Of a stretch of DNA of 64,000 nt, positions 62,371 through 62,946 are shown one piece after another (position 1 is the stretch's first letter; the number at the start of each line of letters is the position of its first letter). The notes beneath the pieces were generated by a model. That model searched no databases, was not told where the DNA came from, and was given only the letters and a program-made list of their open reading frames with translations. The stretch spans positions 473,290-537,289 of the forward strand of contig CAWFAS010000001.1 of the NCBI GenBank assembly GCA_963813895.1, read 5' to 3'. The position numbers were made by a program, and so were the translations under genes. The DNA comes from an uncultured Gammaproteobacteria bacterium (GTDB lineage Bacteria > Pseudomonadota > Gammaproteobacteria > JAURND01).

Positions 62371-62946
62371 ATGCAAAAAAAAGGTTCATATCTGCTTAAA
62401 CCAGTTGTTTTGGCGATTGGTCTGCTAGGATTGGCCCCGTTGGCTAGTGCTGCCGATTTTTACTATGGTGGCGTATATTATCCAAGTGTGGCTGCTTTTT
62501 GTTCATCGGCGGTGGTTCGCGCTATGTATGTTCCCCCCGCTTGGTATATTCCCCCCGCTTGCGTGCAGGCAGGGTATACAGAATATTATTATGGTCCCCC
62601 CAATGAGAATTATATTTACTATAATAATGGAGCATACCCCAGTGGGACTACTTATGACTATAATAATGAAGCTGCTTACCCCAATTACTATTACAGCAAT
62701 CCTAGCAATCCCAATAATGCTAATTATCATCCAAGCAATTCGAGCACCTATCAATATCCAAACTATACTAAATACAATGGGGCCTATGGTGGACATGAAT
62801 ACACTTCCCCCCATGCACCCAATAGCGAGGCTTACACTCATTCATACAACTCTTCCACACACCAGGGTCATGGTGAGGAATCTATAGGTAATTCAAATGT
62901 CTTTTATGGCCGGGGCCATTCGGTTACTGTGCATCATAATAGATAA
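62371..62946 (+). CDS. Secreted Tyr/Asn/Pro-rich low-complexity protein
   Basis: 192 aa from the ATG at 62371, with a GAGGAA Shine-Dalgarno 7 nt upstream. The track ORF begins at a GTG 15 nt earlier. Signal peptide LLKPVVLAIGLLGLAPLASA. Mature part is about 25% Tyr plus Asn/Pro/Ser, with a His-rich end (HQGHGEE...HSVTVHHNR). Confidence 0.65.
   Translation: MQKKGSYLLKPVVLAIGLLGLAPLASAADFYYGGVYYPSVAAFCSSAVVRAMYVPPAWYIPPACVQAGYTEYYYGPPNENYIYYNNGAYPSGTTYDYNNEAAYPNYYYSNPSNPNNANYHPSNSSTYQYPNYTKYNGAYGGHEYTSPHAPNSEAYTHSYNSSTHQGHGEESIGNSNVFYGRGHSVTVHHNR

Follow-up and report, generated by a model that had tools for sequence, protein, structure and literature searches.

The open reading frame (ORF) analyzed here, which lies in a 64-kb stretch of gammaproteobacterial DNA (the window), is a genuine, separately transcribed, monocistronic gene. 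It encodes a small tyrosine-rich protein with a predicted Sec signal peptide, with specific N- and C-terminal modules linked by a spacer that is conserved in composition. By sequence comparison, the protein belongs to an uncharacterized orphan family of four members that is unrelated to known families. From its composition and architecture we tentatively propose, with somewhat less than even confidence, that it is a structural or adhesive, self-associating protein of the envelope or matrix. The features of the locus are collected in Table 1.

Table 1. Sequence features of the tyrosine-rich gene and its product (positions in the window).
Feature	Position	Strand	Description
Extended −10 promoter TGcTATAAT (TGCTATAAT) with a second TATAAT	62317..62336	+	No recognizable −35
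Shine–Dalgarno sequence GAGGAA	62359..62364	+	6 nt upstream of the ATG; homologs carry GGAGGA or GGAGG at this position
Coding sequence, Tyr/Asn/Gly/His-rich exported protein	62371..62946	+	191 aa plus stop; ATG at 62371, TAA at 62944–62946
Signal peptide, residues 1–27	62371..62451	+	KK n-region, hydrophobic core, AxA, without lipobox; signal peptidase I cleavage ASA/AD predicted
N-terminal module, residues 28–69	62452..62577	+	FYYG..Y....AAFCS…P.C..AGY; invariant columns of the alignment
18-bp in-frame tandem duplication (YVPPAW / YIPPAC)	62526..62561	+	TRF: period 18, 2.0 copies, 94% match
Variable Tyr/Asn/Pro/Ser/Gly-rich linker, residues 70–126	62578..62748	+	Composition kept, positions not
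C-terminal module, residues 127–191	62749..62943	+	Y.YPNYTKYNG..GGH.YTS…Y.H.YN…H.G.G…G..N..YG.GH; 8 of 9 His
Intrinsic terminator AAACAGC-AAAAGCCCTTC-GTTA-GAAGGGCTTTT-TTAT	62967..63005	+	Hairpin followed by U-run

The annotated frame is under purifying selection

The ORF finder gave an in-frame GTG at 62356 as the start of the gene. Because the Shine–Dalgarno sequence sits within this GTG extension and all homologs begin with M[QGR]KK, we assigned the start to the downstream ATG codon.

Conservation of the frame was evaluated at the DNA level using the source gene and two homologous loci, L001 and L084; a further homolog, P0003, was left out of this comparison. Of the six possible frames, the annotated one alone is open in all three loci, and since this same frame remains open throughout, the length changes among the homologs are in frame. 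The three pairwise comparisons gave dN/dS values of 0.38, 0.43, and 0.18 at dS of 0.7–1.5 (Nei–Gojobori), whereas alignments shifted by one or two bases gave 0.7–1.4. The annotated frame is thus under purifying selection. The first-pass annotation had taken the ORF for a real gene, which was borne out, and had proposed conservation of the frame in relatives as the check on it: the frame is kept, under purifying selection, across the three homologs. The two out-of-frame ORFs that it had described as overlapping the gene are present, at 62447–62887 on the forward strand and at 62503–62841 on the reverse strand, and these frames contain 2–35 stops in the homologs. As only the annotated frame is open in all three loci, we consider both to be by-products of codon bias.

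Conserved promoter and terminator flank the gene

The gene had been credited with its own TATAAT promoter and a strong terminator, and both were located. The promoter contains a TG at 62317–62318 and a TATAAT at 62320–62325, followed by the second TATAAT at 62331–62336; a generic sigma-70 two-hexamer scan did not call it, as no −35 match was found. The block at 62314–62336 is unique in the window and invariant at 18 of 23 positions in the three loci. The terminator hairpin (62974–62999, followed by a U-run) has a folding energy of −17 kcal/mol (z = −3.8), and the same hairpin follows the homologs in L001 and L084. It is also unique in the window, and 30 of its 34 nucleotides are invariant, with all four changes in the loop. 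For comparison, 9 of 56 positions are invariant in far upstream non-coding DNA, 7 of 34 in the 5′ UTR, and 5 of 20 in the 3′ spacer, and among codons for invariant residues 55% of third positions are invariant. Promoter and terminator are thus better conserved than synonymous sites.

When metagenomes were scanned with the terminator hairpin, more than 120 unrelated loci were recovered, none with the tyrosine-rich gene. The bare hairpin core is thus a common metagenome sequence, and what carries information is solely that it has been kept at this gene. An Rfam match to STnc100 over the terminator (search of 61800–63200) scored 19 bits, well under the gathering score of 47, and was dismissed.

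The conserved extended −10 element, Shine–Dalgarno sequence, and terminator suggest strong, probably constitutive expression. Abundant structural proteins would be expected to show conserved strong signals of this kind.

The alternative that no functional protein is made, the ORF being a product of chance or a gene decaying in AT-rich DNA, would fit the restriction to very few genomes, the absence of family, fold, and operon context, and the position in a poorly conserved stretch adjoining a 493-bp ORF-free spacer, but it is effectively excluded by the frame that stays open at three loci diverged to dS 0.7–1.5 with dN/dS of 0.18–0.43, by homolog length differences that are all in frame, by 62 invariant residues, and by the joint conservation of signal peptide, Shine–Dalgarno sequence, promoter, and terminator.

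The protein belongs to a four-member family

When 5.8 billion clustered proteins were searched with a word index, the source protein and three homologs were retrieved: P0002 (176 aa, 51% identity), P0003 (147 aa, 47% identity), and P0004 (146 aa, 45% identity), the last deposited as HVV69223.1, ‘hypothetical protein, Gammaproteobacteria bacterium’. All three originate from uncultured gammaproteobacteria or metagenomes. A profile HMM search of all 1.84 billion representatives yielded no members beyond these four, and scans of genome, metagenome, and viral contig collections with the family alignment added none. As default tblastn detects the known members, the negative contig scans are not an artifact of low-complexity masking. 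None of the four proteins matched Pfam or NCBIfam at E ≤ 1, no family member matched PHROGs, and a PDB profile search gave 0 matches at E ≤ 10.

One weak tblastn match, at L021 21289–21627, was rejected as a member; it is compositional only and was lost with composition-based statistics. The surrounding region in this unrelated gammaproteobacterial metagenome-assembled genome (MAG), 21194–21652, encodes a lipoprotein-like signal (…LLLSAC followed by AYHPNHYNSYPGNGP) that runs past an apparent frameshift into a tail rich in Tyr, Asn, His, Gly, and Gln (…GYGNYQQPYPHNH…NNNYYNQNNYYN…). From this case, small exported proteins rich in Tyr, Asn, His, and Gly may be a recurring type.

Two conserved ends are joined by a compositional spacer

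The Sec signal peptide and its cleavage site were assigned by rule rather than by a predictor. The peptide claimed in the first-pass annotation is readily recognizable, with two Lys, the hydrophobic core VVLAIGLLGLAPL, and a putative cleavage site ASA/AD (…LAPLASA/AD), and it is conserved in all four members. It is near-invariant at the protein level, and 52 of 81 nucleotides are invariant. It carries no lipobox Cys, and a lipoprotein was accordingly rejected. An outer membrane beta-barrel was also rejected, as the C-terminal residue is not aromatic and hydrophobic residues alternate too little.

Tyrosine accounts for 31 of the 191 residues (16%) and for 30 of the 164 residues of the mature part (18%), rising to 28% in residues 69–136 and to 35% in the densest 40 residues. 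In the 43 other ORFs of the window, the background is 3.2% and the maximum 6.0%, and the excess over this background is highly significant (binomial P ~1e-14). The earlier estimate that about a quarter of the residues are Tyr thus holds for the middle of the protein but not overall. Many of these residues occur as YY and Y.Y pairs. Asn (12%), Ser (10%), Pro (9%), and Gly (9%) are also abundant; by contrast, Leu, Ile, and Met together number 4, Lys and Arg 4, and Asp and Glu 9. Beyond the N-terminal module, Tyr, Asn, Gly, Ser, Pro, and Gln make up 60% of the sequence, and aliphatic and charged residues are nearly absent. The C-terminus is His-rich, as had been stated, with eight of the nine His within the last 51 residues, and GH, HG, and YG dipeptides are concentrated in this conserved region. 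The mature protein is about 18 kDa. Across the family, the mature proteins contain 18–23% Tyr, 11–13% Asn, 9–15% Gly, and 5–11% His, with just 2–5 Leu, Ile, and Met residues and a GRAVY score of about −0.9.

The 62 invariant alignment columns are unevenly distributed. This distribution qualifies the first-pass description of a low-complexity protein: the middle is conserved in composition alone, as that description implies, whereas both ends are conserved position by position. The N-terminal module contains two invariant cysteines, Cys44 (62500–02) and Cys64 (62560–62), and is probably a loop closed by a disulfide between them. The 18-bp duplication lengthens this loop in the source genome only; P0002 has a single YVPPIC. 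The linker comprises 57 residues in the source protein and about 21 in P0003 and P0004. Most in-frame indels of the family fall in it, with a few more in the flanking conserved modules, and such in-frame length variation, together with the 18-bp duplication, in linker and loop is typical of spacer regions. The C-terminal module carries HPGHG and YGxGH motifs and, across the family, four invariant His. BLAST self-comparison detected no internal repeats, and TRF found the 18-bp duplication alone. Proline residues are spaced by 12, 15, 17, 1, 5, 1, 14, 1, 13, 14, 7, 3, 7, 9, 17, and 3 residues.

The invariant YPNYTKYN (62749–62775, residues 127–135) contains an N-x-T sequon in all four proteins. 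PglB-type N-glycosylation was rejected, as no D/E-x-N-x-S/T sequon occurs and YPNYTKYN has no acidic residue at −2.

AlphaFold2 modeled the source protein with a mean pLDDT of 32 and every residue below 50. For the shortest homolog the mean was 42, with the Cys module at 57–68 and the remainder below 50. This pattern fits a small disulfide-stabilized head with a disordered tail, weakly so with four sequences, and the low confidence of the models may merely reflect the four-sequence alignment.

Genomic neighborhood and host

The gene lies between an alpha/beta hydrolase gene (61014–61877) and a DNA photolyase gene (from 63104), without an operon partner. The 493-bp spacer on the hydrolase side (61878–62370) contains no ORF longer than 79 aa and no Rfam match, and conservation in the homologous loci is limited to its last ~55 bp, which hold the promoter. 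A decayed gene, or the scar left by an insertion where synteny breaks, could account for the spacer. The homologous loci have unrelated neighbors: L001 has tautomerase and LysR genes, and L084 has an HPF-like gene. In relatives, the ArgRS-DUF945-SPOR-HslVU side of the region is conserved, whereas the side with the tyrosine-rich gene is not. The nearest homologs of the hydrolase (64–71% identity) are found in MAGs labeled Alphaproteobacteria, Beijerinckiaceae, and Terracidiphilus (Acidobacteria); such relatives outside Gammaproteobacteria suggest that this end of the region was acquired horizontally.

Elsewhere, the window carries housekeeping genes (TopA, GlyQS, Dxs, NadABC, LPS core genes, a ParE/GyrB-like gene, GlmS, HslVU, and ArgRS). 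The best match of ArgRS among 185,579 species representatives is a gammaproteobacterial MAG (65%), followed by Coxiella-like organisms and Methylococcales at 52–56%. GlyQ has relatives at 92%, and a ‘Coxiella sp.’ MAG and Methylobacter match it at ~80%. From these matches, the host is an uncultured deep gammaproteobacterium.

Several other genes of the window were recorded. A 1335-aa ankyrin-repeat protein (11228–15235) is encoded beside a 383-aa protein with at least five Sel1 repeats (15569–16720). Eukaryote-like repeat proteins of the ankyrin and Sel1 types are characteristic of Legionellales and Coxiellales that live in association with amoebae or other hosts, and here they only hint at a host-associated lifestyle. 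An S1/P1-type nuclease is encoded at 41430–42311 (Pfam E = 1e-45); bacteria seldom encode this family, which is known chiefly from fungi, plants, and protists. For two ORFs, 9063–10271 (401 aa) and 44160–45992 (609 aa), a Pfam search at E ≤ 1e-5 gave no family. As listed, glyS overlaps glyQ by ~150 nt (5910–8117 and 7969–8904), and its translation probably begins at a codon inside the listed ORF.

A structural or adhesive role is tentatively favored

As the protein matched neither a curated or phage family nor a solved structure, its function was deduced from its anatomy. The roles put forward in the first-pass annotation, namely an adhesive or matrix protein, a cross-linkable or metal-binding surface protein, or a substrate for tyrosine modification, are likewise drawn from composition. 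The export signal, the scarcity of aliphatic and charged residues, the predominance of six residue types, the variable spacer, the His/Gly/Tyr-rich tail, and the expression signals together favor a structural protein over an enzyme or a regulator. In the model we propose, the monocistronic and probably strongly expressed gene would yield a small protein that is exported by the Sec pathway and cleaved after ASA. Outside the cytoplasm, a Cys44–Cys64 disulfide would close the N-terminal module, and the remainder would stay largely unfolded because of its composition (nearly devoid of aliphatic and charged residues, with Tyr, Asn, Gly, Ser, Pro, and Gln at 60%). The protein may then contribute structure or adhesion to the envelope or extracellular matrix through multivalent self-association or surface binding, mediated by Tyr stacking and by hydrogen bonds of Tyr with His or Asn. 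The conserved C-terminal His/Gly/Tyr module would act as a specific interaction site, and the variable linker would set valency and length. We infer the disulfide, the disorder, the high abundance, the final location, and the mechanism of self-association alike. Chemistry of this kind has a precedent in the His/Gly/Tyr-rich peptides of squid beak, in which His deprotonation, His–Tyr hydrogen bonding, and Tyr clustering drive self-assembly (PMC6884462).

Three observations weigh against self-association. No partner genes are found nearby, and the neighbors differ at each locus; the protein also lacks the tandem repeats seen in known structural low-complexity proteins. Furthermore, the C-terminal 60 residues are conserved strictly by position, which a specific ligand or metal site would explain no less well than generic stickiness.

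The main rival to the structural reading, which explains this positional conservation well, is a periplasmic or extracellular metal-binding or metal-buffering protein, whose C-terminal His and Tyr residues (GGH, H.G.G, YG.GH) would coordinate Cu, Zn, Ni, or Fe so as to store, detoxify, or deliver the metal. Small unfolded His-rich periplasmic proteins that fold upon metal binding exist, and the export of the protein, the fixed positions of its four invariant His and numerous invariant Tyr and Gly, and the clustering of eight of its nine His in the last 51 residues are all in line with such a role. However, the composition is dominated by Tyr, Asn, and Gly rather than by His, and the ligands Asp, Glu, Met, and Cys are very few. 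No metal-handling family of Pfam or NCBIfam was matched, none of the three genomic contexts contains an adjacent metal transporter, sensor, or efflux gene, and the promoter looks constitutive, with no obvious regulator site. We therefore regard metal binding as unlikely on balance, though a serious candidate.

The protein might instead be a host-directed factor that is carried across the outer membrane, for instance via type II secretion, to act on the surface of the host or inside the vacuole. Signal-peptide-bearing orphans restricted to one lineage are characteristic of the type II secretomes of Legionella, the window encodes the ankyrin-repeat, Sel1-repeat, and S1/P1 nuclease proteins, and Coxiella-like organisms are among the relatives of both ArgRS and GlyQ; together, the gene content and these relatives suggest a host-associated lifestyle. 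However, this lifestyle is inferred from just three genes, the window contains no secretion-system genes, and neither a resemblance to a known effector motif nor a composition pointing to an enzyme was found in the protein. A host-directed role is thus rather unlikely.

In a further proposal, tyrosines of the protein would be oxidized enzymatically to DOPA or dityrosine and the protein cross-linked into an insoluble protective coat; the first-pass annotation had likewise suggested a cross-linkable protein or a substrate for tyrosine modification. The family has the requisite tyrosine content (18–23%) and pairs, and there is a bacterial parallel in that the Tyr-rich CotC and CotU form high-mass assemblies and spore coats contain dityrosine links (PMC7944565). 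However, no tyrosinase, laccase, multicopper oxidase, or peroxidase gene occurs in the 64-kb window or beside the homologs, and oxidative cross-linking is therefore highly doubtful. More generally, no gene for secretion, anchoring, or cross-linking lies near the tyrosine-rich gene.

Comparison with known low-complexity proteins

The structural reading was set against four groups of known proteins: the sulfur globule envelope (Sgp) proteins of the gammaproteobacterium Allochromatium vinosum, the squid beak His-rich proteins (HBPs), the CotC/CotU spore coat proteins of Bacillus, and the curli and Fap amyloids. The tyrosine-rich protein belongs to none of them, as each comparison fails on at least one defining feature.

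SgpA–C are rich in Gly and Tyr. The Sgp proteins (SgpA/B/C/D) are small (11–13 kDa), Sec-exported structural proteins, each encoded by its own gene, with unusual, somewhat repetitive sequences and regularly spaced prolines (P-X2-P) (PMC10386293). The tyrosine-rich protein resembles them in its predicted Sec signal peptide (27 aa) and its small size (18 kDa when mature). It differs in having no homology to them, the profile search of 1.84 billion and the word-indexed search of 5.8 billion proteins having returned only the family itself. Its prolines are irregularly spaced, its GRAVY score of about −0.9 is at odds with the description of the Sgp proteins as extremely hydrophobic, and the window contains no sulfur-oxidation genes (none of sox, dsr, or sqr).

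Like the squid beak HBPs, which are secreted and disordered, the protein has a His/Gly/Tyr-rich C-terminal region and is predicted to be exported and largely disordered. The chemistry proposed here, comprising His–Tyr hydrogen bonds, Tyr clustering, and a pH response, has been demonstrated for HBPs (PMC6884462). Unlike these animal proteins, however, the tyrosine-rich protein contains no tandem GHGxY-type pentapeptides, only isolated GH, HG, and YG; there is no homology between them, and Asn is one of its major components. One may imagine a bacterial counterpart of the animal His/Tyr-rich biomaterials with an origin separate from that of every known matrix protein, an exported, disordered protein that condenses on a change of pH or on metal and forms a protective or adhesive coat over a host-associated gammaproteobacterium, for example in a transmissive or resting stage, but so specific a picture is distinctly unlikely.

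Like CotC and CotU, the protein is small, bacterial, and Tyr-rich. CotC and CotU are restricted to Firmicutes, where they are assembled in the mother cell and depend on coat morphogenetic proteins. Together with CotG, they are found in the insoluble surface layer of the Bacillus spore coat as small Tyr-rich proteins, for which oxidative Tyr cross-linking has been proposed (PMC7944565). In contrast to CotC and CotU, which have no signal peptide, the tyrosine-rich protein carries one; its neighbors place the genome in Gammaproteobacteria, and no sequence homology was found.

With curli CsgA and Pseudomonas FapC, the protein shares Sec export and richness in Asn, Gln, Gly, and Ser, self-assembly of an extracellular matrix being a feature of these gammaproteobacterial proteins. 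Curli and Fap amyloids have imperfect internal repeats and are served by dedicated secretion and nucleation operons. The tyrosine-rich protein, by contrast, has no internal repeats, no secretion or nucleator operon, and no Pfam match.

A pediocin-like bacteriocin was also considered and rejected: the mature part of 119–164 aa exceeds the fewer than 60 aa of such peptides, the motif is FYYG. rather than YGNGV, and no immunity or ABC genes lie nearby.

Judged by its sequence, then, the protein may be placed among the small exported low-complexity aromatic-rich proteins of bacterial envelopes and matrices, with no sequence relationship to those known.

Significance of the family

Orphan proteins of odd composition are common, and the tyrosine-rich family touches no long-standing question. 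Its gene is useful mainly as a well-validated case of an odd ORF that proves to be real. The modular design, with a putative disulfide-closed head, a variable Tyr/Asn spacer, and a His/Gly/Tyr tail, would make self-assembly, adhesion, and metal response easily testable. If the proposed role is true, the family would be a sequence-unrelated addition to the few bacterial exported, low-complexity, aromatic-rich structural proteins.
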